Shown here: piece after piece, positions 37,514 through 60,986 of the stretch
Position numbering within the stretch: position 1 is the first letter of the stretch
Layout of the letters: every line of letters begins with the position of its first letter
DNA from: a virus
Length of the DNA: 64,000 nucleotides
Direction: 5' to 3' (one strand)
IMG/VR virus record: IMGVR_UViG_3300045988_179268
Location: 192,001 to 256,000 of that record
Position numbers and translations under genes: made by a program
The notes under the pieces: model-generated
The model's input: the letters and a program-made list of their open reading frames with translations, nothing else
The model's database searches: none
What the model was told of the DNA's origin: nothing

Positions 37514-37567
37514 TATGGTGGGCATAGCCGGAGCCGCATGTCTTAGATTTGTTTCAATACGCAAATC

Positions 37568-37578: not shown

Positions 37579-37610
37579 TATCCTGTAAGGCAATGACGAA
37601 AGGATTCGCA

Positions 37611-38087
37611 ATGCAGAAAAAGAACCAACCCCTCAGTGGCGATGAAATCTTTTCATACGTGGCGTTGGCGTTTATGCTAACTCTCATGGTAGTAGGCATC
37701 GGGTATGCCGCATGGATTAACCGACCCACCCCTACCATTGACACTAACCACAACTTTCAGGTTACTCGCATCGAAACCCGGAACTTCAAAGAAGGTGAAT
37801 GGCATCGCTACAGCCACTTCGGAGATTGCCGAAACATCGACGGAAGCACTTACACCTGCATCGTAGATGACGACTACTGGGTAGGTGACACCTTTGAATG
37901 GCGCGAAGCTGACAAGTACGAAAACGCCGACGAAGGCTGGGTTAAGGTTGAAAGCGACGTAAAACCAACCGACACCGAATATGCATACCGCAAGGTATCC
38001 GACTGGGACGTTGTGCGAGATGCCCCCGGTGACAGCCGCAACGGTCAGGTAGTCAAGCATGTACACCTTGACGAGTTCTACCTCTAA
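37611..38087 (+). CDS. membrane-anchored hypothetical protein
   Basis: ATG 37611 after GAAAGGA and downstream of promoter 37568-37578; one N-terminal TM segment. Confidence 0.6.
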   Translation: MQKKNQPLSGDEIFSYVALAFMLTLMVVGIGYAAWINRPTPTIDTNHNFQVTRIETRNFKEGEWHRYSHFGDCRNIDGSTYTCIVDDDYWVGDTFEWREADKYENADEGWVKVESDVKPTDTEYAYRKVSDWDVVRDAPGDSRNGQVVKHVHLDEFYL

Positions 38088-38229
38088 AGCGCCCAAATAA
38101 GCGGCGGACTATGTGTTAATCCGCCGCTTATAGTAATATTTGGAATATGCAACGAACGTTCCTCGAAGAAGAACCTTCTTGCACAACAGAAACACCCATA
38201 ACCAGTAACAAGAAAGGGATAACTACAAC

Positions 38230-47585: not shown

Positions 47586-47996
47586 ATGACCAAGCAGACC
47601 ACCGAAACCCCCAAGGTAATCAAGCTCACCGACGAATGGGGCGACCCTCTCATCGACGGAGACGGAAACCTCCTCGTACCCAAGGAAATTAAGGTAGGCG
47701 CAACCATCAAATTCGACACTTTCCGCAACGATGGTACCCGCGTAACCTCAACCCGCTTCATCACCGGCGGCAACAGTACCCGCCTCACCATTAAGGATTA
47801 CACCGGAAAGCCCGACGGCACCCTCAACGTAATCCAGTGCAACCGCGAATGCTTCACCTGCTGGGAAGACACTGACGACGAACTCCACAGCGAAGAAAAC
47901 TGCACCGGAGCCGTAACCTTCGACGGACTCGAATACATCAACGGTCAGGACATGAACTTCGGACAGGCACTCAATATCACTGTAACCAACCCCTAA
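47586..47996 (+). CDS. hypothetical protein
   Basis: ATG 47586 after GAAAGG; promoter at 47491-47520. Confidence 0.6.
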   Translation: MTKQTTETPKVIKLTDEWGDPLIDGDGNLLVPKEIKVGATIKFDTFRNDGTRVTSTRFITGGNSTRLTIKDYTGKPDGTLNVIQCNRECFTCWEDTDDELHSEENCTGAVTFDGLEYINGQDMNFGQALNITVTNP

Positions 47997-48025
47997 ATAC
48001 AGGGACTTTGCTTACACGTAAGATG

Positions 48026-48036
48026 TGTGCTACACT
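48026..48036 (+). promoter_or_regulatory. promoter motif (drives E2/E3)
   Basis: TGTGCTACACT. Confidence 0.55.
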
Positions 48037-48046
48037 AAAAATATCA

Positions 48047-48189
48047 CACCTCGCCTGTGAGAGACGGGAGAGGTGGATAATCTAAACGGATAGGTGGCAT
48101 CGGTTACCTGTCAAGACCAGGATAACTGGCATCAGACAGTTTGAGGGTCACCGTTAAGGAAAATCCTTAACTCATCTACCGAATGACTC
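48047..48189 (+). ncRNA. E-module E2
   Basis: begins 11 nt after the -10 at 48026-48036; P1, TCTAAACGG, TCAAGACCAGGA, TTGAGGGTCACCGT, P4 GTTAAGGA-AAA-TCCTTAAC; ends CTCATCTACCGAATGACTC. Confidence 0.7.
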
Positions 48190-48231
48190 TGGGTAATACG
48201 GATTAGCGGGGTAATCACCCTTGCCAGGAAG

Positions 48232-48333
48232 CGTATTCTCCGTACACGCGGGGATGACTCCGGTTTCTGCCCCGTAAATGGGTTAGCCTCATGGCACGCC
48301 GCATCGTATTCTCCGTACACGCGGGGATGACTC
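48232..48333 (+). CRISPR. two identical type I-E-like repeats, non-canonical 44-nt interval
   Basis: CGTATTCTCCGTACACGCGGGGATGACTC at 48232-48260 and 48305-48333 (29/29 identical); the interval itself contains a degenerate repeat, TTTCTGCCCCGTAAATGGGTTAGCCTC. Confidence 0.5.
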
Positions 48334-48447
48334 TATAAACGGGTGGGCAACATTCGTGTCGCACGTCAAGACCAGGAGAGTTAGGTAACTAGCTTGAGGG
48401 TCACCGCCTAGTGAAACACTAGACCCACCCCGCGCAGGGGATGGCTC
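48334..48447 (+). ncRNA. E-module E3 (lacks P1; a full repeat sits in its place)
   Basis: TATAAACGG, GTCAAGACCAGGA, TTGAGGGTCACCG, CTAGTG-AAA-CACTAG; ends CCCACCCCGCGCAGGGGATGGCTC. Confidence 0.65.
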
Positions 48448-48568
48448 CCCGAGTCAGCAACAGGCAACCCAGACATCTTAACCGCGTTCCCTATATACGC
48501 GGGATGACTCACAGGCTCACCCTCACATACTCGCTGGGTGGATTCTCCAACATACGTAGGGCTGGCTC
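48419..48568 (+). CRISPR. mini-array: E3 terminal repeat plus two degenerate repeats
   Basis: repeat ends at 48447, 48510 and 48568 (periods 63 and 58 nt); repeats CGCGTTCCCTATATACGCGGGATGACTC and GGATTCTCCAACATACGTAGGGCTGGCTC. Confidence 0.45.
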
Positions 48569-48604
48569 ATACCAGGTGTGTGACACAGATAACACAAAAT
48601 CAGG

Positions 48605-48634
48605 TTGCGTACCATGAAAAACATGTGGTACACT
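48605..48634 (+). promoter_or_regulatory. tRNA/E operon promoter
   Basis: TTGCGT, 18-nt spacer, TGTGGTACACT; upstream palindrome TGTGTGACACA. Confidence 0.7.
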
Positions 48635-48718
48635 TGATATATAAGGCGCGGGGGTTTGAGAAAGCCGCCAATGCAAAGCTCATTGATAACTATATAGGGT
48701 AAAAACTATTGAACATAA

Positions 48719-48802
48719 GCCGCAGTGCCTGAGTTTGGAAAAAGGGGCTGACTGTAAATTAGCTGTCGTTCGACTACGGGGGTTCAAATCCCTCCTGCGG
48801 CA
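48719..48802 (+). tRNA. tRNA-Tyr(GTA)
   Basis: acceptor GCCGCAG/CTGCGGC, anticodon arm GCTGA-CTGTAAA-TTAGC, long variable arm, T-loop TTCAAAT; no encoded CCA. Confidence 0.85.
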
Positions 48803-48831
48803 CGCAACACATCATTAAGATGTGTTCTATA

Positions 48832-48990
48832 TACCTCGCCTGTTGGTGAGATGGGAGAGGTAGTAAAAATAAACGGGTAGGCAACAGTGTTTGTCACGCC
48901 AAAACCTGAAAAGCAGGTTATAGCCACAGGGCAATCTGGGCGCTCCTTGACCGTGCAACAAGGGGTCACCAAAAATCAAAGCACGGGTAT
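48832..48990 (+). ncRNA. E-module E4 (divergent variant)
   Basis: P1 TACCTCGCC..GGGAGAGGTA and AATAAACGGG are conserved; the central part is replaced by other hairpins; GGGGTCACC is retained; 3' end unclear. Confidence 0.4.
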
Positions 48991-49020
48991 GTTCAACACG
49001 TCAGCATAATTGAGTGCTGT

Positions 49021-49174
49021 GACCTCGACCTGCGAGGGGCGGGGAGGTCGAAAAAATAAATGGGCAGGCGGCTACCAGCTATCCTGTCAAGACCAGGAAG
49101 GCTGACGACAGTCAGCTGGAGGGTTACCGTCTAGTGAAACGCTAGACCCAACTCATATAGAGGAAATCCGGCTC
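49021..49174 (+). ncRNA. E-module E5
   Basis: P1 GACCTCGACCTGC/GCGGGGAGGTC (compensatory changes), TCAAGACCAGGA, GGAGGGTTACCGTC, P4; terminal hairpin CTC-ATATA-GAG covaries with CCC..GGG in other copies. Confidence 0.7.
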
Positions 49175-49260
49175 AGTATATATCAGGGGTCACTTTCCCA
49201 TACACGCGAGGATGGCTCCATAGCGGGATGGTTGAAACCTCCCTACATGCGGGATGGCTC
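49146..49260 (+). CRISPR. degenerate repeat cluster after E5 (13-15-nt intervals)
   Basis: repeat-like units end at 49174, 49218 and 49260; ..CCCATACACGCGAGGATGGCTC and ..CCCTACATGCGGGATGGCTC. Confidence 0.35.
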
Positions 49261-49287
49261 CCGCAACAAAATAATACGAAACCAGGC

Positions 49288-49316
49288 TTGCAAACCACAA
49301 AAACATGTGGTACACT
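49288..49316 (+). promoter_or_regulatory. tRNA/E operon promoter
   Basis: TTGCAA, 17-nt spacer, TGTGGTACACT. Confidence 0.7.
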
Positions 49317-49327
49317 GGTTTACATAG

Positions 49328-49398
49328 GCCCATCTAGCTTAATGTAAAGCAACAGTCTTCAAAACTGTGAGATGTCGGTTCAAGTCCGGCGGTGGGTG
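49328..49398 (+). tRNA. tRNA with UCA anticodon (UGA-reading; suppressor or Trp-like)
   Basis: acceptor GCCCATC/GGTGGGT, D arm GCTT/AAGC, anticodon arm ACAGT-CTTCAAA-ACTGT, T arm GTCGG-TTCAAGT-CCGGC, discriminator G. Confidence 0.8.
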
Positions 49399-49447
49399 CT
49401 TGCAAGTAACAAAACCGGAGTTCTAGCCGAAAGTGGCGTAACTTGCG

Positions 49448-49529
49448 GCGTGTAATGACCACGAAGGCAAGTGGCGAGCCCAGTTAGAATGGGCACGTAA
49501 TAGTAGGGGTCGGTTCCCTTCTACACGCT
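49448..49529 (+). tRNA. non-canonical tRNA-like element, possible pseudo-tRNA
   Basis: perfect 7-bp terminal stem GCGTGTA/TACACGC and an anticodon-like arm GCCCA-GTTAGAA-TGGGC (TAG), but the D and T arms do not fold canonically. Confidence 0.3.
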
Positions 49530-49534
49530 CTACA

Positions 49535-49674
49535 CTCCTCGTCTGCGAGAGATTGGGAGAGGAGGATAATAAAAACGGGCGCTAACCGCGTCAAGACCAG
49601 GAAAGCCAACGATAGTCAGCTTGAGGGTCACCGTCTAGTGAAACACTAGACCCAGCCCACGTAAGGGGCGGCTC
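49535..49674 (+). ncRNA. E-module E6
   Basis: P1 CTCCTC../..GAGGAG (compensatory changes), AAAAACGGG, TCAAGACCAGGA, TTGAGGGTCACCGTC, P4; ends CCCAGCCCACGTAAGGGGCGGCTC. Confidence 0.7.
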
Positions 49675-49728
49675 AAGAGCAGTGCTTTTACACAGCAAAG
49701 GTCGTGGGTTCAAATCCCTCACGAACCA
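49675..49728 (+). pseudogene. 3' fragment of a Tyr-type tRNA abutting E6
   Basis: GTCGTGGGTTCAAATCCCTCACGAACCA matches the T arm and acceptor 3' strand pattern of the Tyr tRNAs, but no complementary 5' acceptor strand lies upstream. Confidence 0.5.
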
Positions 49729-49756
49729 CACTTGGTACCCTTTTATAGGGCATCAA

Positions 49757-49829
49757 GTCTCTTTAGCTCAGATAGTAGAGCGCCCGCCTGAAGAGCGGGA
49801 GGTCGCCAGTGCAAGCCTGGCAGGAGACA
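49757..49829 (+). tRNA. tRNA-Phe(GAA)
   Basis: acceptor GTCTCTT/AGGAGAC, anticodon arm CCCGC-CTGAAGA-GCGGG, T arm GCCAG-TGCAAGC-CTGGC. Confidence 0.85.
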
Positions 49830-49861
49830 CGTAAGCCCACCTATTTTTTCGGTGGTGCATT

Positions 49862-50004
49862 ACCTCTCGCCTGTGAGAGACGGGAGAGAGTGAAAACGGA
49901 CGGGCGGCTTCGGTTGCCTGTCAAGACCAGGAGAATTAACTTCGGTTAATTTGAGGGTTACCGTCTAGTAAAATACTTAGACCCACCCATGTATGGGAAG
50001 GCTC
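49862..50004 (+). ncRNA. E-module E7
   Basis: all conserved blocks present; P3 AATTAAC-TTCG-GTTAATT; ends CCCACCCATGTATGGGAAGGCTC. Confidence 0.7.
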
Positions 50005-50064
50005 ATCCAGTCTACAGCTAAGAAAGCGCGCGGTGCAGTATTTCTTATATACACGGGATGGCTC
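49976..50064 (+). CRISPR. one-spacer unit after E7
   Basis: terminal repeat ends at 50004, 33-nt spacer 50005-50037, repeat GTATTTCTTATATACACGGGATGGCTC at 50038-50064. Confidence 0.45.
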
Positions 50065-50202
50065 TCTTACAGTCTGGTTCCTTTTTTGCGCCCATGTGGG
50101 CTGACTGGGAATTACTTATATGAAGAAAGAAGAGATGTGGCATCACTAACATGCACTGCTTTATCTCTGTTTTTTCAGTGACACAGATAACACAAAATCG
50201 AG

Positions 50203-50232
50203 TTGCAAACCACGAAAAACATGTGGTACACT
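50203..50232 (+). promoter_or_regulatory. tRNA/E operon promoter
   Basis: TTGCAA, 18-nt spacer, TGTGGTACACT. Confidence 0.7.
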
Positions 50233-50314
50233 TTATATATGAGACGTGAGGGCTTGAAAGAGTCCCCGACGCAAAAGCTCATTGAAAACCTTATAGAGTA
50301 AACTATTTAATCAA

Positions 50315-50398
50315 GCCGTTGTATCCAAGTGGTCAAAGGAAACTGTCTGTAAAACAGTCGCTATCGAAGCTTCGTGGGTTCGACTCCCTCCGGCGGCA
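50315..50398 (+). tRNA. tRNA-Tyr(GTA), second copy
   Basis: acceptor GCCGTTG/CGGCGGC, anticodon arm ACTGT-CTGTAAA-ACAGT, long variable arm, T-loop TTCGACT. Confidence 0.85.
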
Positions 50399-50469
50399 CG
50401 AGACACATTACTAGAATGTGTTTAGCTACATCATCTATACGTGCTATAGTTGTTGCAGTAAATATTTTT

Positions 50470-50540
50470 GGCGTACTAGTTTAGTGGTAAAACCTCAGTC
50501 TTCCAAACTGATGATACGGGTTCGATTCCCGTGTACGCCT
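50470..50540 (+). tRNA. tRNA-Gly(TCC)
   Basis: acceptor GGCGTAC/GTACGCC, anticodon arm TCAGT-CTTCCAA-ACTGA, T arm ACGGG-TTCGATT-CCCGT, discriminator T. Confidence 0.85.
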
Positions 50541-50544
50541 CTAT

Positions 50545-50683
50545 GCTCCTCGCCTGTGAGAGACGGGAGAGGAGCTAAATCTAAACGGACACTCACGTGT
50601 CAAGACCAGGAGAGTTGGGCAACCTACTCAAGGGTTACCGTCAAAGTAAAGCTTTGGCACGCTCCGCATAAGGTCGATGACTT
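50545..50683 (+). ncRNA. E-module E8
   Basis: starts 5 nt after tRNA-Gly; P1 GCTCCTCGCCTGT/ACGGGAGAGGAGC, TCTAAACGG, TCAAGACCAGGA, AAGGGTTACCGTC; degenerate end ..GGTCGATGACTT. Confidence 0.65.
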
Positions 50684-50818
50684 AGAGTAAGTATCTACAT
50701 GTTCTAAGTCATCGTGCGGGATTCGCGTCTCACTAAATCCTGCGTGTCTAAGGATTCTCCTTCTCATTAGAGAGACTATAGATGCGTTTTACATAATCTG
50801 AAATAACTAACACTTTAA

Positions 50819-50900
50819 GCGCTTGTGGCGGAATTGGCAGACGCGGCAGACTTAGAATCTGTTGTCAGCAGACGTGTGGGTTCGAGTCCCACCAGGCGCA
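50819..50900 (+). tRNA. tRNA-Leu(TAG)
   Basis: acceptor GCGCTTG/CAGGCGC, anticodon arm GCAGA-CTTAGAA-TCTGT, long variable arm, T arm GTGGG-TTCGAGT-CCCAC. Confidence 0.85.
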
Positions 50901-50930
50901 CTTGGTGTCCACAAGTGCATGTGGGTGCCC

Positions 50931-51052
50931 GCTTCCGTATCCAAGCTAGGTTAAGGGGAGCGTCTTTCATGAGCCTTCTGCACATAACGGCTATGGGAGC
51001 GCTTGCGGTGCATGAGAGTGCCCGCGCGCCGGTTCAAATCCGGTCGGAAGCA
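50931..51052 (+). tRNA. over-long (122 nt) tRNA-like element, anticodon not assignable
   Basis: acceptor GCTTCCG/CGGAAGC and T arm GCCGG-TTCAAAT-CCGGT are canonical, with a plausible D arm; about 35 extra nt lie in the anticodon/variable region. Confidence 0.35.
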
Positions 51053-51084
51053 CGTAACGCCACCTACTATGGTGGCTTGTTACT

Positions 51085-51227
51085 CACCTCGCCTATGAGA
51101 GATGGGAGAGGTGAATAATCTAAACGGACACTAACCATGTCAAGACCAGGAGAACTAGCTTACGCTGGTTAGAGGGTCACCGTCTAACAAAATGTTTAGA
51201 CCCGCCTCGTATTTATGGGGTAGGCTT
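51085..51227 (+). ncRNA. E-module E9
   Basis: P1 CACCTCGCCTAT/ATGGGAGAGGTG (G-C to A-T compensation); all blocks present; ends CCCGCCTCGTATTTATGGGGTAGGCTT. Confidence 0.7.
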
Positions 51228-51309
51228 TCAGCCTCATTAGGTAACCTATTGAGGCACCCTTATTGCAATAGGGGAGCCTTCGGGCTTCTGGCTTTTATCA
51301 CTCATTCTT

Positions 51310-51339
51310 TTGCGAGATTGAGTGTTGGTGTGGTATACT
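51310..51339 (+). promoter_or_regulatory. tRNA operon promoter
   Basis: TTGCGA, 18-nt spacer, TGTGGTATACT. Confidence 0.65.
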
Positions 51340-51358
51340 TATCATGCTTACTCTTTAG

Positions 51359-51438
51359 GCGCTTGTGGCGGAACTGGCAGACGCGGCGGACTTAAAATCC
51401 GCTTCTTCGGAGTGTGGGTTCGAGTCCCACCTGGCGCA
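51359..51438 (+). tRNA. tRNA-Leu(TAA)
   Basis: anticodon arm GCGGA-CTTAAAA-TCCGC, long variable arm, T arm GTGGG-TTCGAGT-CCCAC. Confidence 0.85.
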
Positions 51439-51468
51439 CGCAACCACCCTTAACTGGGAGGTTTATAT

Positions 51469-51542
51469 TCCCTTGTAGCTCAATTGGCAGATGCGCCCGA
51501 CTGTTAATCGGGAGGTTACTGGTTCGAGTCCAGTCTGGGGAG
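51469..51542 (+). tRNA. tRNA-Asn(GTT)
   Basis: acceptor TCCCTTG/CTGGGGA, anticodon arm CCCGA-CTGTTAA-TCGGG, T arm ACTGG-TTCGAGT-CCAGT. Confidence 0.8.
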
Positions 51543-51594
51543 CTTACGTCACTTATGCGTGGCGTTGATACCTTAGCTTTTTTGTTAAGGTTCT

Positions 51595-51670
51595 GGTCTG
51601 TTAGCTCAGTGTTGGTTAGAGCACCGCCCTGTCACGGCGGAGGCCGCGGGTTCGAGCCCCGTACAGACCG
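51595..51670 (+). tRNA. tRNA-Asp(GTC)
   Basis: acceptor GGTCTGT/ACAGACC, anticodon arm CCGCC-CTGTCAC-GGCGG, T-loop TTCGAGC. Confidence 0.85.
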
Positions 51671-51692
51671 CGTATAGTTTTTTTGGCTATGC

Positions 51693-51831
51693 CTCTCGCC
51701 TGTGAGAGACGGGAGAGAGTAAAAACGGACAGGTAGCTTCGGTTACCTGTCAAGACCAGGATAGCGGGGTAACCTGCTTGAGGGTCACCGTCTGACAAAA
51801 TGTTAGACCCAGCCCACGTAGGGGATGGCTC
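51693..51831 (+). ncRNA. E-module E10
   Basis: follows tRNA-Asp; all blocks present; ends CCCAGCCCACGTAGGGGATGGCTC; followed by a 32-nt spacer and a full repeat. Confidence 0.75.
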
Positions 51832-51892
51832 CTTGGACTCGAAGTTTTGACGAATAGGGAGTCCGTTTTCCCAGCACACGCGGGAGTGGCTC
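51803..51892 (+). CRISPR. one-spacer unit with exact 29+32 nt geometry after E10
   Basis: terminal repeat ends at 51831, spacer 51832-51863 (32 nt), repeat CGTTTTCCCAGCACACGCGGGAGTGGCTC at 51864-51892; period 61 nt. Confidence 0.6.
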
Positions 51893-51932
51893 ACCGTGAC
51901 CTCCTGTGTGATACAGGTAACATAAAAACGGC

Positions 51933-51962
51933 TTGCATACCATAGAAACTATATGGTACACT
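51933..51962 (+). promoter_or_regulatory. tRNA operon promoter
   Basis: TTGCAT, 18-nt spacer, TATGGTACACT; upstream palindrome CCTGTGTGATACAGG. Confidence 0.65.
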
Positions 51963-52029
51963 TGCTATATATGGTTCGGGGAAACCTGAAAGACCGATAC
52001 GCTATTTCTTAATTGAATGAATTTTTTTT

Positions 52030-52103
52030 GCCTCCTTAGCTCAGTTGGTTAGAGCATCTGTCTTGTAAACAGAGGGTCGCCGGTTCGACTCCGGCAGGAG
52101 GCT
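52030..52103 (+). tRNA. tRNA-Thr(TGT)
   Basis: acceptor GCCTCCT/AGGAGGC, anticodon arm TCTGT-CTTGTAA-ACAGA, T arm GCCGG-TTCGACT-CCGGC. Confidence 0.9.
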
Positions 52104-52139
52104 CGCTAAAGTAGATAGTTTTACTGTTTGCTTTTATGA

Positions 52140-52212
<73 letters not shown>

Positions 52213-52242
52213 CTCACACGCCTGTTGCAGGTTGTGTGTTAA

Positions 52243-52315
52243 GCGCCTTTAGCTCAGTCGGTAGAGCAGTGGACTTTTAATCCTCGGGTCGCGGGTTCGA
52301 GCCCCGCAGGGCGCA
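52243..52315 (+). tRNA. tRNA-Lys(TTT)
   Basis: acceptor GCGCCTT/AGGGCGC, anticodon loop CTTTTAA, T arm GCGGG-TTCGAGC-CCCGC. Confidence 0.85.
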
Positions 52316-52552
52316 CGTAGCATGAAGGGATGTAGCTAATCCTTTCGTAATACACCGGATAAACACTATTCAGAAGGTCGTAGGTTAAAATCCTGCCACG
52401 TGCCACATTGCACGTGTAGCTCGGTGTTATAAGAGCGTCTGGACGGTGCCGGTTTAAGCCATACACAGGGGAAGTGACCTACACACTTCCATAGGGGTAG
52501 CGCCCCGGCTGTCTTGTAGGATAAGGGTACCTCTTAGCGGGGGTGCTCTCAT

Positions 52553-52628
52553 GGTCTGTTAGCTCAGTGTTGGTTAGAGCACCGCCCTGTCACGGCGGAG
52601 GTCGCGGGTTCAAGTCCCGTACAGACCG
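52553..52628 (+). tRNA. tRNA-Asp(GTC), second copy
   Basis: near-identical to 51595-51670; T-loop TTCAAGT. Confidence 0.85.
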
Positions 52629-52666
52629 CTTATATGGCGCACTGACCGCCTAAATAGTCAGTCTAA

Positions 52667-52740
52667 GCCCTTGTAACTCAGCTGGTTAGAGTGCCGCTCT
52701 GATAAGGCGGATGCCGGTGGTTCAAGTCCACCCAAGGGCA
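52667..52740 (+). tRNA. tRNA-Ile(GAT)
   Basis: acceptor GCCCTTG/CAAGGGC, anticodon arm CCGCT-CTGATAA-GGCGG, T arm GGTGG-TTCAAGT-CCACC. Confidence 0.9.
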
Positions 52741-52742
52741 CT

Positions 52743-52814
52743 GTGTGTGAAGCCGGATAGCGAGGCGCTTGCTTGTGGCGCAAGTAGTAGCGGGTGCGAT
52801 TCCCGTCACACACC
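52743..52814 (+). tRNA. tRNA-His(GTG)
   Basis: acceptor GTGTGTG/CACACAC, anticodon arm CTTGC-TTGTGGC-GCAAG, T arm GCGGG-TGCGATT-CCCGT, discriminator C. Confidence 0.85.
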
Positions 52815-52816
52815 CC

Positions 52817-52891
52817 GCTCCCCTAGTTCAGTCTGGATAGAACGCCGTGCTACGAACGCGGAGGTGGCAGGTTCAAATCCTGCGGGGAGCA
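52817..52891 (+). tRNA. tRNA-Arg(ACG)
   Basis: acceptor GCTCCCC/GGGGAGC, anticodon arm CCGTG-CTACGAA-CGCGG, T arm GCAGG-TTCAAAT-CCTGC. Confidence 0.9.
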
Positions 52892-52924
52892 CGTAACAGC
52901 ACCTATTATGGTAGTGTGTTATAT

Positions 52925-53070
52925 ACCTCGCCTGTGAGAGACGGGAGAGGTGGTAAATCTAAACGGATAGGTGGCATCGGCTACCTGTCAAGACCAGGAT
53001 GGCGGGGCAACCTGCTTGAGGGTCACCGTCTAGTGAAACACTCAGACCCAACCCACATAAGGGAAAACGT
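52925..53070 (+). ncRNA. E-module E11
   Basis: follows tRNA-Arg(ACG); all blocks present; degenerate end CCCACATAAGGGAAAACGT. Confidence 0.65.
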
Positions 53071-53120
53071 AAGGTGAATCTATTTTGCGGCTTGACCCGG
53101 TATTAAGCCTAGTCAGGAAG

Positions 53121-53205
53121 ATTTTTCCCTACGCATGTGAGGCTGGCTCTACTCAGCCTAACATGCGTAGGCGACGTTTTCTCCGTACACGCGAGGGGAT
53201 GGCTC
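53121..53205 (+). CRISPR. two degenerate repeats after E11
   Basis: ATTTTTCCCTACGCATGTGAGGCTGGCTC at 53121-53149 and GTTTTCTCCGTACACGCGAGGGGATGGCTC at 53176-53205; 26-nt interval; the first repeat and the interval form a long inverted repeat. Confidence 0.4.
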
Positions 53206-53288
53206 CGGCTAGGATACGCCCTTCAAGGCGGCGCTACTTTCTTTACATACATAGAAAGTCAGCTTTTATCAATATGCTCACAACATAT

Positions 53289-53361
53289 GCCCCCATCGTC
53301 TAGATGGTTAGGATACTACCCTTTCAAGGTAGAGATGCGGGTTCGAGTCCCGTTGGGGGTA
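53289..53361 (+). tRNA. tRNA-Glu(TTC)
   Basis: acceptor GCCCCCA/TGGGGGT, anticodon arm CTACC-CTTTCAA-GGTAG, T arm GCGGG-TTCGAGT-CCCGT. Confidence 0.85.
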
Positions 53362-53496
53362 CGCAAGCTTCAAGAGTTATATTTGTAGCTTTTGGAAGCT
53401 GGCATGGGGTCATGCTGTTTTTATAGTTATGGTCACAATTTAACCTTTCGTTACATCGAGTAGCGGCTCGCCGTCTTGTTGGTTGCCGCTATTCTT

Positions 53497-53570
53497 ATCC
53501 CAGTAGCTCAGTGGATAGAGCGCCCGCCTCCTAAGCGGGGTCGTCACAGGTTCGACTCCTGTCTGGGATA
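53497..53570 (+). tRNA. tRNA-Arg(CCT)
   Basis: acceptor ATCCCAG/CTGGGAT, anticodon arm CCCGC-CTCCTAA-GCGGG, T arm ACAGG-TTCGACT-CCTGT. Confidence 0.85.
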
Positions 53571-53604
53571 CTTTTAGGTAAACCTGTTTTTTAGGTTTAC
53601 CGTT

Positions 53605-53677
53605 GCCTCCTTAGCTCAGCGGATAGAGTACCCGATTCCGAGTCGGGTGGTCACAGGTTCGATTCCTGTAGGAGGCG
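53605..53677 (+). tRNA. tRNA-Arg(CCG)
   Basis: acceptor GCCTCCT/AGGAGGC, anticodon arm CCCGA-TTCCGAG-TCGGG, T arm ACAGG-TTCGATT-CCTGT. Confidence 0.85.
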
Positions 53678-53678
53678 C

Positions 53679-53750
53679 GTCCCCGTGGTCTAATCGGGAG
53701 GATGCCGCTCTCTCAAGGCGGCGATGCGGGTTCGAGTCCCGTCGGGGGTA
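53679..53750 (+). tRNA. tRNA-Glu(CTC)
   Basis: acceptor GTCCCCG/CGGGGGT, anticodon arm CCGCT-CTCTCAA-GGCGG, T arm GCGGG-TTCGAGT-CCCGT. Confidence 0.8.
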
Positions 53751-53874
53751 CGCTCATGCGCGGCTTTTTGTTGCGTGTGTTGTGGTGACTTTCGGTAGTT
53801 ACCTTTTTTGTACGGCTTGGGCTGGGTTTGGTTTTTCCTCACTTTTGCCTTACTCAGGTTTCTGGTCGTGTTTC

Positions 53875-53947
53875 GCGCTTTTAGCTCAGTTGGTAGAGCA
53901 AGGGACTCTTAATCCCTGGGTCGCGGGTTCGAGCCCCGCAGGGCGCA
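53875..53947 (+). tRNA. tRNA-Lys(CTT)
   Basis: acceptor GCGCTTT/AGGGCGC, anticodon arm AGGGA-CTCTTAA-TCCCT, T arm GCGGG-TTCGAGC-CCCGC. Confidence 0.85.
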
Positions 53948-53977
53948 CGTAGCACATTCCTTTTGGGTGTGTTTACT

Positions 53978-54128
53978 CACCTCGCCTGTGAGGGACTGGG
54001 AGAGGTGGCTAATCTAAACGGATGGGTAGCTTTGATTGCCTGTCAAGACCAGGAGAATCTGCCTTTGGTGGGTTTGAGGGTCACCGTCTAATAAAATATT
54101 AGACCCAACCCTGTGCAGGGGATGGCTC
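53978..54128 (+). ncRNA. E-module E12
   Basis: follows tRNA-Lys(CTT); all blocks present; ends CCCAACCCTGTGCAGGGGATGGCTC. Confidence 0.7.
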
Positions 54129-54175
54129 GACAAAAAAGTCAGGCGGTGTTTTCCCTGTATACGCGGGGATGACTC
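54100..54175 (+). CRISPR. E12 terminal repeat plus one repeat, 18-nt interval
   Basis: repeat TGTTTTCCCTGTATACGCGGGGATGACTC at 54147-54175. Confidence 0.4.
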
Positions 54176-54206
54176 ACCGCTAATATGTACAATTCCATAC
54201 CTTTTT

Positions 54207-54279
54207 GCCCTAGTAGCTCAGGGGATAGAGCAGTCGCCTTCTAAGCGATTGGTCGCAGGTTCGAATCCTGCCTGGGGCA
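54207..54279 (+). tRNA. tRNA-Arg(TCT)
   Basis: acceptor GCCCTAG/CTGGGGC, anticodon arm GTCGC-CTTCTAA-GCGAT, T arm GCAGG-TTCGAAT-CCTGC. Confidence 0.85.
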
Positions 54280-54306
54280 CGCTATATGCCTCAAGGTGTG
54301 TCGCAA

Positions 54307-54459
54307 CACCTCGCCTGTGAGGGACTGGGAGAGGTGGTTAATCTAAACGGGTGGGTGGCTTTGGTTGCCTGCCAAGACCAGGAAAGCTGGCTTCGGTCAG
54401 TTTGAGGGTCACCGTCAAAGTAAAACTTTGGCTCATCTACCGCATAAAGTGAATGGGAA
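54307..54459 (+). ncRNA. E-module E13
   Basis: follows tRNA-Arg(TCT); all blocks present; end of the E2 type, CTCATCTACCGCATAAAGTGAATGGGA. Confidence 0.7.
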
Positions 54460-54495
54460 ATGTGGGTTGGCGAGGTGTTTATCCTTGTCAATAAG

Positions 54496-54638
54496 GATTT
54501 TCCCCGTACACGCGGGGATGGCTCCTGGACCCTCAAACTTGCTAGAGTAGAGCACGTATTTTCCCCGTACACGCGGGGATGGCTCTAACGTCAAGCCTAT
54601 TAGCGTTTACGTTTTCCCTTGTATGCGTGGGGTGACTC
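54496..54638 (+). CRISPR. three-repeat, two-spacer type I-E-like mini-array
   Basis: R1 54496-54524 and R2 54557-54585 are 28/29 identical (ATTTTCCCCGTACACGCGGGGATGGCTC). Spacer 1 is 32 nt (period 61). Degenerate terminal repeat at 54610-54638 after a 24-nt spacer. Confidence 0.65.
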
Positions 54639-54669
54639 ACAATAACCCTTTTATATATTCACAACATAT

Positions 54670-54743
54670 GCCCCCGTGGTCTAATTGGTCAGGATGCCAC
54701 TTTCTCAAGGTGGGTGGTACGGGTTCGAGTCCCGTCGGGGGTA
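54670..54743 (+). tRNA. tRNA-Glu(CTC), second copy
   Basis: acceptor GCCCCCG/CGGGGGT, anticodon arm CCACT-TTCTCAA-GGTGG. Confidence 0.8.
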
Positions 54744-54775
54744 CGTTCATGCGCGGTTTTTGTTGCGTGTGTTTT

Positions 54776-54848
54776 GCGCTTTTAGCTCAGTTGGTAGAGC
54801 AACGGACTCTTAATCCGTGGGTCGCCGGTTCGAGTCCGGCAGGGCGCA
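54776..54848 (+). tRNA. tRNA-Lys(CTT), second copy
   Basis: anticodon arm ACGGA-CTCTTAA-TCCGT, T arm GCCGG-TTCGAGT-CCGGC. Confidence 0.85.
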
Positions 54849-54878
54849 CGTAGCACATTCCTTTTGGGTGTGTTTACT

Positions 54879-55029
54879 CACCTCGCCTGTGAGGGACTGG
54901 GAGAGGTGGCTAATCTAAACGGATGGGTAGCCTTTGGGTTGCCTGTCAAGACCAGGAAAATTAGCTTAGGCTGATTCGAGGGTCACCGTCTGGCAAAATG
55001 GCAGACCCACCCTTTGTAGGGGGCGGCTC
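54879..55029 (+). ncRNA. E-module E14
   Basis: follows the second tRNA-Lys(CTT); near-duplicate of E12; ends CCCACCCTTTGTAGGGGGCGGCTC. Confidence 0.7.
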
Positions 55030-55098
55030 AGTGTTTGAGAATGAGGGTTGCGCCCTCAGCGAGTATTTCCCGTAAATATAATTACTATTTCACATTGT

Positions 55099-55172
55099 TC
55101 CCTTGTAGCTCAATTGGCAGATGCGCCCGACTGTTAATCGGGAGGTTGTAGGTTCGAGTCCTTCCGGGGGAG
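55099..55172 (+). tRNA. tRNA-Asn(GTT), second copy
   Basis: 5' two-thirds identical to 51469-51542; acceptor TCCCTTG/CGGGGGA. Confidence 0.8.
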
Positions 55173-55188
55173 CTTTTAATATTGTGTT

Positions 55189-55225
55189 ACGCCCTTGCTG
55201 GTTTTTGCCGGTGAGGGCGTTTTTG
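55189..55225 (+). terminator. terminator closing the tRNA island
   Basis: ACGCCCT..AGGGCGT stem followed by TTTTT. Confidence 0.7.
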
Positions 55226-55236
55226 TTGTATAATTG

Positions 55237-55247
55237 GTGTACCACAT
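55237..55247 (-). promoter_or_regulatory. promoter motif on the minus strand facing the tRNA island
   Basis: reverse complement reads TGTGGTACACC; a plus-strand TATAAT at 55230-55235 overlaps the region. Confidence 0.4.
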
Positions 55248-55274
55248 ATTTTTTAGTTGAAAGGTTTTCATAGA

Positions 55275-56309
55275 ATGTTTGTTTGCGAGGATGTGTCCCC
55301 TGTTGGTTCTGGCAAGGTTCAGTCTATTTCTTTGGGGGAGTCATTTTTGCCTGGTGACGTGATGGATGTATTGAATCCGTCTATTCCGAGTGCGGCGGCG
55401 CGTATGGTATTGATTTATAAGCGTGATGTTGTCTCTGCTGGTGCGCAGTTGGTGGGCGTTTTCACTGTTTCTGCCGACCCTGCTACTTTTGCGGGTGGTG
55501 TTGATGGTCAGGGTATTATTCCAGGTGTTGCCTCTGGTTCGCTTGTTGAGCGTGTCGTTGAGAGTGTTCCTGTGCAGGGTGGTGATTACGCCTCACATGC
55601 GTTGAAGGTTGCGTCCTGGTTGTCTAATTCTGGTGTGCCGCTGGGTTATGGTGGTGATTTGCGCAATGGTTTTGCTTTTACTGCGTTTGAATCTGCTGAG
55701 GGCGCATGTGCTGTGCCTGATGCGTTTGAGTTTTTGGATGCGGCGGGTGTGTCTGTCCCTTGGTATAACGAGGGTAACTATTTCGGGTACACTGTTTCTG
55801 GTGTTAGTAAGATTAGTTCCCTTAAGGGTGTGGGTTCTGTGTTGGGCGACCTTGGTGACGTTGGTGTGGACTCCCGCGCGCTGAGTCAGGGGGTTGATGG
55901 TGCTGGCGACAATGCTTATGTCGCGTGGTTGCTGTGGGGTGTTGATGATGGTGGTCGTGTTGGGGATGTGCATCTTGTGGCTGGTGACCCGACGCTAAAT
56001 GGGTTCCCGACTGTGGGGTTGCCGTTTATTAAGGGCGCTCCTCAGCTTGTGGGTGTCCCGGTTGAGGAGTATGGTTATCGTTTGGTGACGAAAATGTTCA
56101 CTAATTTCACTTCTGTTTTTGTCACTATTAAGTCCCCTTTGTTTAATGCTAATCGTGTTTGTTATGATGCTGGTAAGGGTTTGTATTCTTTGCCTGTTGT
56201 GGTGACTTTGGGGTCTGAGTCGCCATTGTGGGTGCCTGGCGATTTGGGGGCGCGTATGCGCTATGTTAAGGCTGTTTTGGGGCGCGATGGGGCTTTAAAT
56301 ATCTTGTAA
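55275..56309 (+). CDS. G/V-rich paralog A in the GT-biased island
   Basis: ATG 55275 after GAAAGG (track TTG 55257); C-terminal YDAGKGLYSLPVVV matches the two downstream genes. Confidence 0.55.
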   Translation: MFVCEDVSPVGSGKVQSISLGESFLPGDVMDVLNPSIPSAAARMVLIYKRDVVSAGAQLVGVFTVSADPATFAGGVDGQGIIPGVASGSLVERVVESVPVQGGDYASHALKVASWLSNSGVPLGYGGDLRNGFAFTAFESAEGACAVPDAFEFLDAAGVSVPWYNEGNYFGYTVSGVSKISSLKGVGSVLGDLGDVGVDSRALSQGVDGAGDNAYVAWLLWGVDDGGRVGDVHLVAGDPTLNGFPTVGLPFIKGAPQLVGVPVEEYGYRLVTKMFTNFTSVFVTIKSPLFNANRVCYDAGKGLYSLPVVVTLGSESPLWVPGDLGARMRYVKAVLGRDGALNIL

Positions 56310-57577: not shown

Positions 57578-58585
57578 TTGTTGTCTTCGTCGTTCATGAA
57601 GGACCCGAATGTTGCTAGTTCGCCTGTTGATGGTCAGGTGTACAATATTGTTCCTTTGGAGGATTTGAATGAGTTTGACCGGGTGGATACGAGTCATTTC
57701 GTGTCTGAGCCTACGTTGGATTCGTTGGATGGGTTGGCTAATTTTGCGTTAGGTTCATCGTCTGAGTTCCTGTTCTTGTTTGAGGATTTGGACGGGGTTC
57801 CGGTTCTTTCTGGGATTGTGTTTGCGGTGACTACGCCTAACGGTGTTGGTCGAGCTATCTTGCCTGCGCATGACCGTATTGTGTCTAGCGTGTGGGATGA
57901 GGTTTGTAAGCGTTCCTCTTCAACTTCGCGTGAGCGTCTGTCTGTGGCGTGTGCCGAGGTACTGGTTGAGCGTGGCACAGCGTTCATGTCTGCTTATACT
58001 GATGCGTTGCCTATTGGTGTTGCTAGGAAGTTGCGTGGTAAGAATAATGGGCGTGAGGTGACAGCCCAGTATGTGTTGGATAACTATGGTTTGATGCCTC
58101 AAGATGCTGTGAAAGCACATGCTGTTGGGGTGTCTGCTGACTTCATGGTTTCGGATGCGGTGAAGGTTCTTTATCGGAAGGATTCTGAGGCTATTAACCC
58201 GGTGTCTGCGGGTCGTCCTGGGTGGGCGCATGTGGGTTGGTTGCAGTGGCGTATGAGTCCGACTACAGGTCTTGAGTTAGGATTGGGCTTTGGTGCTCCT
58301 TTTGGGGAGGCTGATTCTTTGCCTTACGTGCCGCTGGTTCCCGTCTTTAAAGACACCTTTAAGCGTATGGTTATGGCGTATTCTCCTTCTGAGGGTGCCG
58401 TCGGTGCTACATTTATGTCCATCATTCAGGATGGCACGTTTAAGGGTAACGGTGACGAGTTCACTATTGGTGGCGCACTTTATAATGACGGCAGGTACGC
58501 TTATGATTCCGCTTCGGGGGTTTATGCTATGCCTATTATTATTGAACAGCCGCGCGCCACGGCTAAGGTGTTCATGGTGAACTAG
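57578..58585 (+). CDS. paralog C in the GT-biased island (start uncertain)
   Basis: GGGAGG upstream; C-terminal YNDGRYAYDSASGVYAMPII. Confidence 0.55.
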   Translation: MLSSSFMKDPNVASSPVDGQVYNIVPLEDLNEFDRVDTSHFVSEPTLDSLDGLANFALGSSSEFLFLFEDLDGVPVLSGIVFAVTTPNGVGRAILPAHDRIVSSVWDEVCKRSSSTSRERLSVACAEVLVERGTAFMSAYTDALPIGVARKLRGKNNGREVTAQYVLDNYGLMPQDAVKAHAVGVSADFMVSDAVKVLYRKDSEAINPVSAGRPGWAHVGWLQWRMSPTTGLELGLGFGAPFGEADSLPYVPLVPVFKDTFKRMVMAYSPSEGAVGATFMSIIQDGTFKGNGDEFTIGGALYNDGRYAYDSASGVYAMPIIIEQPRATAKVFMVN

Positions 58586-59765: not shown

Positions 59766-60986
59766 ATGGAAACCACTGTTAAGCGAACTCTCGAAACTCC
59801 GCTGGATGCAACCGTCCGAGGTAATATTATTGCCGCCCGTAAGAATCAGGAAACCGGCACCGAATTTTACAACCTGTCTGCATATTACAAGGAACTGCTT
59901 GGGTTCCCTTATGCTTTTTCTACCCCGTCGCCACAGCATGTCGTTATTGACGAGAATCATTACCGCACTACAACTCTTAGCCCCCTAGATAGTGCGACTG
60001 TAGAGCATCTGACCCTGACTGCTTCCGAGAAGACCCCTGTCATTATCGAGGGCGTAGCTATCACTGGTCAGTATGTTGTAGGTTCAACTGGTGCTGTTCA
60101 CAGTCTGGTTGATTTGGGTAGTGTGGATGAGAACTACCTTATTGGCACTGGTCGTAGCATCTTCTATGCGCCGGTTAAGACCAAGGTCTTCTATTCGGTT
60201 GGTAACCTTGCGGCGAAGTATGGTCACCTGGGGGGCGTTGCAATGATTAACACTCTTGTGACGATGTACCGCGACTCCCACCCTGGCTATAAGAACGCTA
60301 TTGAGAAGGGTGAGTTGGAGGATTTTATTAAGTTTGCGGAGGCTCAGCCTAAGGGTGCCCGCGCTTTGGCTCTAAATGCTCCTAAGAGTGATGAGCCGCC
60401 TGCCGATTTCACTCTAGTCCCTTCCCTTGATGGCGCTGTTGTTGATAACCCTGCCGTGGTTTACAGTAATGAGCTTCTTTGTCGCTCCCTGTACCTTTCT
60501 CCTGAGCGTCACCGCGCCCTGGGTGGTACTGGTAAGCTCCCCGTATTCCTTGCCGCTGATGTCCGCCCTCGCGTAGAGGTGCTATTGAAGGCGGCGGGCC
60601 GTTCGCTGACTTATGATTTTGCGTGGCGTAAGGGTGTGCCGACTTCTCCGCTGTACACGGCAGAGCAGTACACTATGATTCGCTCTTGGATTCGCGCTGA
60701 GGGCGACAAGAAAAAGCCGTCTGATGAGTGGGTTGAACAGGCACGCGAGGTTTTCCCTGCCACTAAGCCGACCACCATGTATGCTTTGAGCCGACCCTTG
60801 CGCACTATTGTCGTGAATCAGGGTGAGGATATTGTGGTTGATGCCATTAAGAAGCATAAGGCTGAGATGGTGAAGATTGTCCGATTCAATAGTAAGGGCG
60901 TGGAGCCTATTAAGCTCCCTAGCTTGCTGTACACCAAGGAAACCGCTGATGCTCTTATGGGGGAGCTGACAGGTAAGGGTATCTAG
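59766..60986 (+). CDS. hypothetical protein
   Basis: ATG after AAGGAGA; promoter at 59671-59681. Confidence 0.65.
   Translation: METTVKRTLETPLDATVRGNIIAARKNQETGTEFYNLSAYYKELLGFPYAFSTPSPQHVVIDENHYRTTTLSPLDSATVEHLTLTASEKTPVIIEGVAITGQYVVGSTGAVHSLVDLGSVDENYLIGTGRSIFYAPVKTKVFYSVGNLAAKYGHLGGVAMINTLVTMYRDSHPGYKNAIEKGELEDFIKFAEAQPKGARALALNAPKSDEPPADFTLVPSLDGAVVDNPAVVYSNELLCRSLYLSPERHRALGGTGKLPVFLAADVRPRVEVLLKAAGRSLTYDFAWRKGVPTSPLYTAEQYTMIRSWIRAEGDKKKPSDEWVEQAREVFPATKPTTMYALSRPLRTIVVNQGEDIVVDAIKKHKAEMVKIVRFNSKGVEPIKLPSLLYTKETADALMGELTGKGI

Follow-up and report, generated by a model that had tools for sequence, protein, structure and literature searches.

What is the structured RNA that recurs among the tRNA genes of a jumbo phage, and how is it tied to the CRISPR-like repeats that lie beside it? 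The question is raised by a 64,000-nucleotide (nt) stretch of virus DNA, hereafter the window (IMG/VR record IMGVR_UViG_3300045988_179268, positions 192,001 to 256,000), in whose tRNA island an earlier reading made from the letters alone (the sequence-only reading) had pointed out a repeated RNA module. We argue that the module is a genuine structured RNA in + orientation, and that it may serve both as the 5' leader domain of type I-E-like mini-CRISPR units and as a decoy for Cas6e, a combined model whose chances of being right or wrong we see as about evenly balanced.

Copies, fold and strand of the module

A covariance model, R1, was built from a 23-copy alignment (A1) of the window and two IMG/VR contigs. 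Its 14 matches in the window all have + orientation; the tRNA island accounts for 13 of them, and the last lies at 10809-10944. They score between 143 and 45 bits (E 1e-36 to 1e-10), with no other match above 9.5 bits, and the invariant 11-mer CAAGACCAGGA occurs exactly 13 times in the window, on a single strand. The consensus fold computed by RNAalifold comprises a P1 hairpin, a P2 hairpin, a four-pair GACC/GGTY helix around an internal loop and P3, and a P4 hairpin. Of the roughly 15 copies counted by the sequence-only reading, the 13 of the island and the one at 10.8 kb are recovered by R1; the one at 8.3 kb has no module core and no R1 match, and is not a full module. The copies, with their R1 scores, are:

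48046-48177, + strand: module copy 1, 143.2 bits, ~12 nt 3' of the phage-type promoter -10 element TACACT
48183-48189, + strand: tail of copy 1, handle ATGACTC without a clear hairpin
48308-48430, + strand: module copy 2, atypical, 72.3 bits; its core starts at TATAAACGG
48831-48947, + strand: degenerate module, 45.3 bits; P1 and P2 present, core disrupted, no repeat after it
49020-49153, + strand: module copy, 111.1 bits; terminal hairpin CTC/GAG, not CCC/GGG
49534-49657, + strand: module copy, 109.2 bits; followed by a shortened repeat only, then a tRNA 3' fragment
49862-49988, + strand: module copy with short-form P1, 120.4 bits, behind tRNA-Phe and a trailer hairpin
50545-50664, + strand: module copy, 105.8 bits, beginning 4 nt past tRNA-Gly; degenerate terminal element GATGACTT
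51084-51207, + strand: module copy with short P2, 116.6 bits
51691-51814, + strand: module copy of reference anatomy (consensus fold), 123.6 bits
51694-51718, 51728-51751, 51763-51778 and 51790-51808, + strand: P1, P2, P3 and P4 of the reference copy
51754-51757 with 51783-51786, + strand: GACC/GGUC helix of the reference copy
52923-53053, + strand: module copy, long form, 130.3 bits
53054-53121, + strand: two-hairpin extension of the previous copy (from the extension alignment), leading to a full repeat
53977-54110, + strand: module copy, 127.5 bits, behind tRNA-Lys and a trailer hairpin
54306-54438, + strand: module copy, long form, 134 bits; extension at 54439-54496, then a three-repeat array
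54878-55012, + strand: final module copy of the island, 127.8 bits
10809-10944, + strand: solitary module with its own promoter, 128.8 bits, directly 3' of the open reading frame (ORF) 9825-10763
8300-8390, + strand: P1-like hairpin and repeat-like end (…GTGGACGACTC) in the 5' leader of ORF 8430-8987, as read from its sequence

In copy 2 a full CRISPR-like repeat (48306-48333) takes the place of P1, the sole P1-less case among 295 copies. An ancestral repeat-core-repeat ("pseudo-crRNA") architecture was rejected, being seen in this one copy of the 295 only.

The module is widespread in one phage lineage. A pattern scan of IMG/VR found it on two contigs, of 307 and 361 kb; the exact P1 motif lies on the same two contigs only and is always accompanied by the core, so that P1 is not an independent element. 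A metagenome scan yielded at least 115 loci with the module, many on contigs of 160-360 kb, and in 100 of these R1 finds 259 copies. The family as a whole numbers more than 300 copies in about 100 metagenomic loci of one jumbo-phage lineage (phages of roughly 160-360 kb), the best-sampled genomes holding a dozen or more. The impression that it belongs to no known RNA family held at both thresholds applied: no Rfam match at gathering thresholds overlaps a module anywhere in the window, and with E values up to 10 allowed over 47900-55300 the sole overlapping match has 14 bits (E 7.5). Neither GenBank phages (near and distant modes) nor plasmids contain a relative, and no description of the module was found in the literature. 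The structured leader RNA is thus new, and the mini-arrays that accompany it are a known kind. Genes of the window also occur in run ERR589699, from an accession series that covers dental plaque, saliva and stool samples of a Chinese cohort, which suggests that the phage is human-associated.

Does the fold leave a mark on the sequence? Over 135 distinct sequences, standard pairs fill 98.2% of the cells in the consensus helices, as against 84.9% after column shuffling and about 40% when the partners are slid. Both sides have changed at 23 of the 36 pairs, and the covariation score of 0.463 (0.219 when shuffled) was reached in none of 500 shuffles, a strong statistical excess of the kind that the sequence-only reading had proposed to look for. 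The excess resides in P2, P3 and P4, and for these the claimed covariation is borne out, as is the helix order for the module as a whole; P1 and the GACC/GGTY helix hardly vary, and covariation is neutral on both because they are almost invariant. The proposed pairing of ACGG with CCGT is likewise invariant across the family and competes with the base of P4. Single copies, tails included, have fold z-scores of -4.1 (minimum free energy fold of the reference copy) and -6.1 (copy 52923). Within the module helices G-U and U-G pairs number 768 and A-C and C-A pairs 43, which argues for selection on the + strand transcript; across the family loci, 533 of 535 tRNAs are co-oriented with the modules. 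We conclude that the module is transcribed in + orientation and folds as a genuine RNA structure.

Roughly 40 positions do not vary anywhere in the family: the P1 sequence, which includes an internal G-A mismatch and a GAG in the loop, the strands AAAYGG, GYCAAGACCAGGA and AGGGTYACCGT, and two A's in the P4 loop. P2 and P3, on the other hand, vary freely in sequence and length, and some copies close them with stable tetraloops such as UUCG. Mutual information over the 135 sequences revealed no covariation-supported pseudoknot. These features bear on one reading of the RNA, namely that it is a passive stabiliser or insulator which, with no specific partner, would shield the unit from 5' exonucleases and keep the first repeat from mispairing with tRNA sequences. 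The freedom of P2 and P3 and their occasional stable tetraloops would suit such a role, as would the position of the module at the 5' end of the unit, directly after tRNA processing sites or transcription starts. However, the invariant P1, junction strands and AA of the P4 loop go far beyond what stability needs, and we consider this reading unlikely.

Several further candidates were tried and rejected. A long-range AAAUCU/AGAUUU helix is present in one minimum free energy fold and is not conserved among the other copies. P1 as a mimic of a Shine-Dalgarno or anti-Shine-Dalgarno sequence fails in that its outer pairs covary away from such a sequence, and P4 as a lambda boxB-like element fails in that the positions closing its loop covary as a Watson-Crick pair. 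RsmA reportedly represses cas expression, and a CsrA sponge acting through GGA motifs was dismissed since titrating RsmA would then raise CRISPR activity. Copies with a short P2 also form antisense sigma-70-like promoters (51143-51115 and 49594-49566, - strand; TTGACA, 17 nt, then GATTAT or TATTAT). An antisense promoter as a property of the module was discarded because the spacing is correct in the short-P2 copies only; given the wrong spacing in long-P2 copies, we judge these promoters coincidental.

Terminal hairpins, repeats and spacers

What follows the fold? With the exception of the degenerate copy, each copy in the window runs either into a short hairpin and NNG(G/A)CT(C/T) or into an extension and a full repeat. 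In the short form P4 leads into GACCCA, which precedes a small hairpin (in most copies CCC-loop-GGG) and NNGGCTC, an ending that we name R'. In the long form two further hairpins, AGGAAG and a full repeat come after the small hairpin, giving an RNA of ~230 nt that is predicted to be structured throughout. A full repeat measures 28 nt and has a GC hairpin and the handle ATGGCTC (for example ATTTTCCCCGTACACGCGGGGATGGCTC at 54497-54524); this same unit shows the 28-29 nt length, GC-rich hairpin of 6-7 base pairs (bp), tetraloop and 7-8 nt handle by which such repeats are recognised. The family consensus is GTTTTCCCCGTACACGCGGGGATGGCTC.

51806-51831, + strand: R' of the reference copy (GACCCA, CCC-ACGUA-GGG(G), handle AUGGCUC)
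10936-10956, 48422-48447, 49145-49174, 49649-49674 and 49980-50004, + strand: equivalent R'
50656-50683, 51199-51227, 54102-54128 and 55004-55029, + strand: further equivalent R'
51832-51864, + strand: 33-nt spacer from R' to full repeat, 32/33 conserved in related-phage locus L211
51865-51892, + strand: full type I-E-like repeat, ending 61 nt after the R' handle
48233-48333, + strand: repeat 48233-48260, 45-nt spacer, repeat 48306-48333
48448-48568, + strand: spacer, repeat 48483-48510, spacer, degenerate repeat 48541-48568
49191-49260, + strand: two degenerate repeats (49191-49218, 49233-49260) with a short spacer between
50005-50064, + strand: ~32-nt spacer and repeat 50037-50064
53122-53205, + strand: repeat 53122-53149, 28-nt spacer, repeat 53178-53205
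54129-54175, + strand: 19-nt spacer and repeat 54148-54175
54497-54638, + strand: best-preserved array, repeats 54497-54524, 54558-54585 and 54611-54638, spacers of 33 and 25 nt
10952-11034, + strand: full repeat 10952-10979 and 55-nt guide-like segment, after the solitary module

The hairpin and handle of R' and the neighbouring full CRISPR-like repeats form one family, which bears out the description of the terminal hairpin as CRISPR-repeat-like. A stem of at least 3 bp abuts the handle in 81% of 100 R' tails (45% when shuffled), and the R' stems change in compensation (CCC/GGG, CCCA/TGGG, CCTCAT/ATGAGG, CCGY/RCGG). The GGCTC after the hairpin is retained even where no spacer follows. Five copies (49534, 50545, 51084, 54878 and 10809) have R' with at most one repeat behind it. 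The 55-nt segment behind the solitary module (10980-11034) is a diverged duplicate, 78% identical, of the 3' end of ORF 9825-10763 (10704-10758), and is 89% identical to the end of the orthologous gene in related-phage locus L157; it may be a guide-like segment or an insertion scar.

Could the module itself make the cut at this hairpin? A new self-cleaving ribozyme, cutting at the 3' base of the terminal hairpin, would create the 5' handle of the CRISPR RNA (crRNA), by the 5'-OH chemistry that Cas6e uses, and would do so without Cas6e. Small ribozymes typically combine an invariant multi-helix junction with variable peripheral helices, as the module does; the position directly upstream of the handle is fixed, and the persistence of GGCTC in spacer-less copies fits as well. 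Against this, the module has no match to any Rfam ribozyme model with E values up to 10 allowed, the presumed cleavage site is reached by no pseudoknot or other contact with covariation support, and in the long form the small hairpin precedes a different sequence that is no handle. We regard such a ribozyme as very unlikely.

What the sequence-only reading overlooked are the full repeats and spacers further downstream and their targets in related phages. A module lies within 500 nt upstream of 318 of the 343 repeat-like elements (93%), and the arrays carry 1-3 spacers. In the window the handle-to-handle distance is exactly 61 nt at two sites (54524 to 54585 and 51831 to 51892) and 42-73 nt elsewhere; in the family the modal spacer is 33 nt long (31 of 80), a second group measures 19-25 nt, and deviating units range from 19 to 45 nt.

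When spacers of the related phages were compared with all fetched loci, counting protospacers outside arrays, eight spacer families proved to have such protospacers, with homology ending at the repeat borders. The best matches (33/33, 32/33 and 29/30) fall in contigs of related phages. In seven of the eight families the protospacer has AA at -2/-1, for which the background is 6.3%. Homologues of the window ORFs 57578-58585 and 59766-60986 are among the targets, and 52336-52367 of the window, within the non-coding stretch 52317-52552, is a 30/33 protospacer for a spacer of related phage L203. In the four families with a match in the carrier itself, the carrier's own copy is the more mismatched one, and in two of them the base next to the protospacer-adjacent motif (PAM) is altered; the clearest case has GAG for GAA next to the PAM and mismatches at positions 3 and 5. 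Judged by these matches, the related-phage spacers seem to behave as working guides against rival phages.

Repeats of 28 nt, spacers of 33 nt and AA as the 5' PAM are in combination consistent with type I-E, measured against what we take to be canonical repeats and systems of that subtype; the ~61-nt spacing, the modal spacer and the AA beside protospacers thus bear out the link to type I-E drawn earlier. The Rfam CRISPR-DR models gave only a 20-bit match, at chance level. A genome scan for host repeats used a loose pattern and returned mostly chance or REP-like matches; among the matches listed, the closest repeats (up to 24 of 28 positions) are from Actinomycetota (Spirillospora, Streptomyces, Nocardia), and an array of 61-nt period was seen in Streptoalloteichus. 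No cas genes lie within 8 kb of two actinobacterial loci with related repeats, a stricter repeat pattern had no match in IMG/VR, and no type I cas genes were found either among the window's 60 ORFs or among the 150 representatives of protein clusters that cover ~1 Mb of related loci. Since 170 distinct sequences occur among 209 full repeats, so that the repeats are not identical, and since the sampled DNA has no type I cas genes, we describe these as orphan, degenerate arrays and not as a complete CRISPR-Cas locus.

The same data bear on a reading in which the module is purely a decoy. Like an RNA anti-CRISPR (Racr), it would only trap Cas6e, and perhaps through its core another Cascade subunit, the spacers being secondary. 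The units do have the Racr layout of promoter, upstream RNA and solitary repeat; high copy number and diversified stems would suit a dose-dependent competitor, four window copies end in R' alone, the long form is predicted to be folded all the way up to a good full repeat, and no type I cas genes were found in the sampled DNA nearby. However, 93% of the repeat-like elements lie downstream of a module and many canonical 33-nt units match rival phages, from which production of working crRNAs appears to have been selected. Moreover, the hairpin fused to the module is usually the weak R' and not the strongest Cas6e-like site, and the module is predicted to be fully folded, whereas the upstream RNA of RacrIF1 is inferred to be coated by Cas7f. 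Decoy function alone therefore strikes us as improbable.

The 5' ends of the units and a combined model

How would the 5' end of such a unit be made? Interspersed with the modules are tRNA genes in the same orientation:

48719-55173, + strand: 25 co-oriented tRNA genes among the modules (ARAGORN; Rfam)

One further tRNA lies at 58.8 kb (ARAGORN, Rfam). Several island tRNAs are followed by CGTARC and a small hairpin, and then by P1. Of 299 family modules, 153 start within 45 nt of the 3' end of a co-oriented tRNA, and 114 have no tRNA in the 3 kb upstream. In the window the promoter-proximal copies begin ~12 nt past a -10, and -10-like elements precede 48046 and 10809. The suggestion that modules begin either after a -10 or after a tRNA 3' end is thus well founded. 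The motif ATGTGGTACACT occurs at nine sites on the + strand (27254, 34775, 47509, 48623, 49305, 50221, 51951, 59077 and 61048), at 51951 in the variant form ATATGGTACACT; all nine lie 5' of genes and tRNA units, and the motif is probably the phage's own promoter consensus.

Some further observations concern the island itself. A unit made up of a promoter, a conserved leader of ~80 nt and tRNA-Tyr is duplicated in it (48605-48803 and 50203-50399, + strand). A 72-nt tRNA with anticodon UCA (49328-49399, + strand), called SeC by ARAGORN, resembles an opal suppressor and would hint that UGA is recoded in some portion of the phage genome. A 122-nt tRNA match at 50931-51052 (+ strand) is found by Rfam only (35.7 bits) and missed by ARAGORN; a tRNA 3' fragment (49670-49720, + strand; a partial Rfam match) directly follows module 49534-49657; and the 236-nt non-coding stretch 52317-52552 (+ strand) has a weak YrlA-like match (28 bits).

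The combined model would accommodate these features as follows. The setting would be the tRNA island of a phage of ~319 kb, where the mini-CRISPR transcription units lack neighbouring cas genes. First, phage promoters would transcribe the island as tRNA-module-repeat-spacer polycistrons. Second, the 5' end of a module would be either the transcription start itself or the product of 3' processing on the tRNA ahead of it, and the P1 hairpin would cap it. Third, host Cas6e would bind R' or, in the long form, the full repeat, and cut at the 3' base of the hairpin. Two products would ensue. The downstream RNA would receive an 8-nt 5' handle and become the first viral crRNA, and in the related phages such crRNAs would target rival relatives via host Cascade-Cas3. 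The released module would be a compact, probably nuclease-resistant RNA that holds Cas6e on its 3' hairpin; with ~14 genes in a highly expressed region, it would draw Cas6e off the host pre-crRNA and thus act as a built-in decoy. That ~14 genes lie among tRNA genes, with stems that have diverged yet still pair, suggests that dosage matters. The data themselves show the fold and its strand, its constant fusion to the repeat-like hairpin, its company of repeat-spacer units with I-E-like dimensions and PAM, the matches of related-phage spacers to rivals, and a lack of type I cas genes in the DNA sampled. That Cas6e cuts at R', that the units rely on Cas proteins of the host, and that the module is stable, acts as a decoy and has a ligand at its invariant junction, is what we infer. 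Among the functions that the sequence-only reading had offered, a carrier delivering crRNA-like units to a host type I-E system comes closest to the evidence, namely the 93% association of repeats with modules and the guide-like spacers, its host dependence being the presumptive part; the Racr-like decoy would be compatible with that evidence, the layout being that of a Racr.

Several points weigh against the combined model. Four window copies (49534, 50545, 51084 and 54878) have R' only, with no crRNA downstream. The R' stems are just 3-6 bp long, and in some of them (CCTCAT/ATGAGG, CTC/GAG) the CCCC/GGGG seen in full repeats is absent; hairpins this weak may not be bound or cut by Cas6e. For the window's own spacers neither the fetched loci nor GenBank phages contain a target. 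Likeness to the repeat of the host is a presumption, and the search for cas genes covered part of each phage genome. Finally, the junction (GYCAAGACCAGGA, AGGGTYACCGT) and P1 are almost invariant, and since neither a passive leader nor a simple Cas6e sponge needs such invariance, the model still lacks a specific partner or a catalytic role. It is because the invariant junction and P1, the weak R' and the spacer-less copies are left unexplained that we place the leader-plus-decoy model no higher than evenly balanced.

It is conceivable, if doubtful, that the module represents a new class of phage counter-defence RNA whose activity is its own: either a core, anchored to Cas6e by the terminal hairpin, that binds a second Cascade component, or a new self-cleaving ribozyme that makes the handle with no need of Cas6e. 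In the former variant the three-way-junction core may poison or re-route the second component. If an activity of this kind were true, the phage would control who is loaded into the host type I-E effector.

Neighbouring genes and comparison with known systems

Is there a partner among the genes nearby? The ORFs adjacent to modules have no informative match in Pfam, PADLOC, PHROGs or PDB sequences, and the same holds for ORFs 8430 and 9825. The cassette 8430-10763 consists of a 185-aa ORF, a separate small serine recombinase (Resolvase and HTH_7) and often a 312-aa ORF, and in divergent related phages (loci L138, L171, L198 and L238) this recombinase cassette is flanked by modules.

Such a cassette invites a reading in which the module acts at the level of DNA, as the leader for integration by Cas1-Cas2 or as a recombination site for the module-flanked serine recombinase. 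The module does occupy the position of a CRISPR leader, canonical-length spacers beside a PAM imply past acquisition by adaptation machinery, in divergent phages modules flank the recombinase together with ORFs 8430 and 9825, and the 55-nt duplication flanks the solitary copy. However, the compensatory changes and the excess of G-U over A-C pairs given above indicate selection on a single-stranded + transcript. The module-adjacent repeat is degenerate and unlike the next one, which is not expected from leader-proximal duplication, and all copies are direct repeats, so that a resolvase acting on them would delete the island. A role as DNA is thus highly improbable.

Two TnpB/Cas12f-like ORFs are encoded on the + strand at 38230-39381 (384 aa; TNB and OrfB_IS605) and 2194-3750 (517 aa; TNB). 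An omega RNA recognised by the Rfam model IS605-orfB-I (16092-16316, - strand, 196 bits) adjoins a 438-aa ORF at 16328-17644 (- strand), which has no Pfam TnpB match; none of these elements lies next to a module. TnpB/Cas12f-like proteins are the only type of RNA-guided nuclease found in the window and related loci.

The sequence-only reading had also considered a guide-RNA scaffold for a phage nuclease, for instance a TnpB/Cas12f-like one. TnpB-like genes are indeed present in the window and in related loci, and variable sequence does lie 3' of a conserved scaffold. No TnpB-like gene adjoins a module, however, and the omega RNA is a separate element with its own Rfam model; the scaffold is followed by a repeat-like hairpin and handle and not by a free guide, and an AA PAM with 33-nt spacers suits type I-E. 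This suggestion finds no support, and we give it next to no credence.

Elsewhere in the window, two RNA ligase genes (24413-25981 and 34859-36061, + strand) and AAA_33 and metallophosphatase domains have, taken together, the look of an RNA or tRNA repair set. The stretch 25993-39381 (+ strand) holds about ten ORFs in a row, of 360-440 aa; most match no family, while an RNA ligase and a TnpB-like protein are encoded by one each.

How do the module and its units compare with what is known? In engineered polycistronic tRNA-guide-RNA arrays, tRNAs alternate with guides in one transcript and the tRNA processing enzymes free the neighbours. The units described here resemble them in that tRNAs would alternate with guide units in one transcript, but they are natural, their guide ends would come from a Cas6-type cut, and an extra structured RNA stands between tRNA and guide. 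The tRNA cluster of phage T4 encodes species 1 and 2, structured non-tRNA RNAs of ~120-140 nt that are co-transcribed and processed with the tRNAs and whose function is unknown. The module is likewise a structured non-tRNA RNA among phage tRNAs; the T4 RNAs, however, are single-copy and have no CRISPR repeat, and a likeness to the module is not to be expected. Like a CRISPR leader, the module lies directly 5' of the first repeat and contains or follows a promoter, whereas a leader is an AT-rich DNA-level element for transcription and spacer integration and the module is GC-balanced and selected as an RNA fold.

Closer relatives are found among elements that viruses direct at, or through, host CRISPR systems. 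Virus-borne mini-arrays borrow host Cas proteins to exclude related viruses (Medvedeva et al. 2019 and Faure et al. 2019, in the summary of PMC11656645), and mini-arrays are described in huge phages (PMC7162821). The present arrays are alike in having 1-3 spacers, no cas genes in the sampled phage DNA, matches to related phages, and carrier copies that escape by PAM or seed mismatches. They differ in that the mini-arrays described have repeats identical to those of the host, whereas almost all repeats here differ, with 170 distinct sequences among 209; in that a genome holds a dozen or more arrays, placed among tRNAs; and in that a conserved structured RNA heads each array, a feature without precedent among described mini-arrays.

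With Racr (PMC10651486) the units share a promoter, an upstream RNA, a single repeat-like hairpin and the absence of cas genes alongside; in both, the active product would be the part upstream of the Cas6 cut, and high expression would matter. However, RacrIF1 has an upstream RNA of 70-76 nt with inferred Cas7f coating, whereas the upstream RNA here is a conserved, covarying fold of 130-230 nt, the hairpin fused to it is usually a shortened repeat, and most copies run on into spacer-repeat units. Cracr arrays, the crRNA-like regulatory RNAs of phages (bioRxiv 10.1101/2024.10.29.618823), are similar in their degenerate repeats, some spacer-like segments of 19-25 nt and multiplexed phage-borne units, but they lack a structured leader, and the commonest spacer in the present family is of the canonical 33 nt and has phage protospacers.

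Taken together, mini-arrays and solitary-repeat anti-CRISPR RNAs have been described as bare repeats, and here they are coupled to a conserved, covarying fold. This implies an undescribed step, at the RNA level, in the hijacking or inhibition of CRISPR, and the near-invariant junction suggests a specific, identifiable partner. The family also offers a test case for how orphan, degenerate repeats stay functional and for how related phages fight each other through the immune system of their host. If the module stabilises or loads crRNAs, it would be usable for multiplexed guide expression; if it blocks the assembly of Cascade, it would represent a new type of RNA anti-CRISPR.

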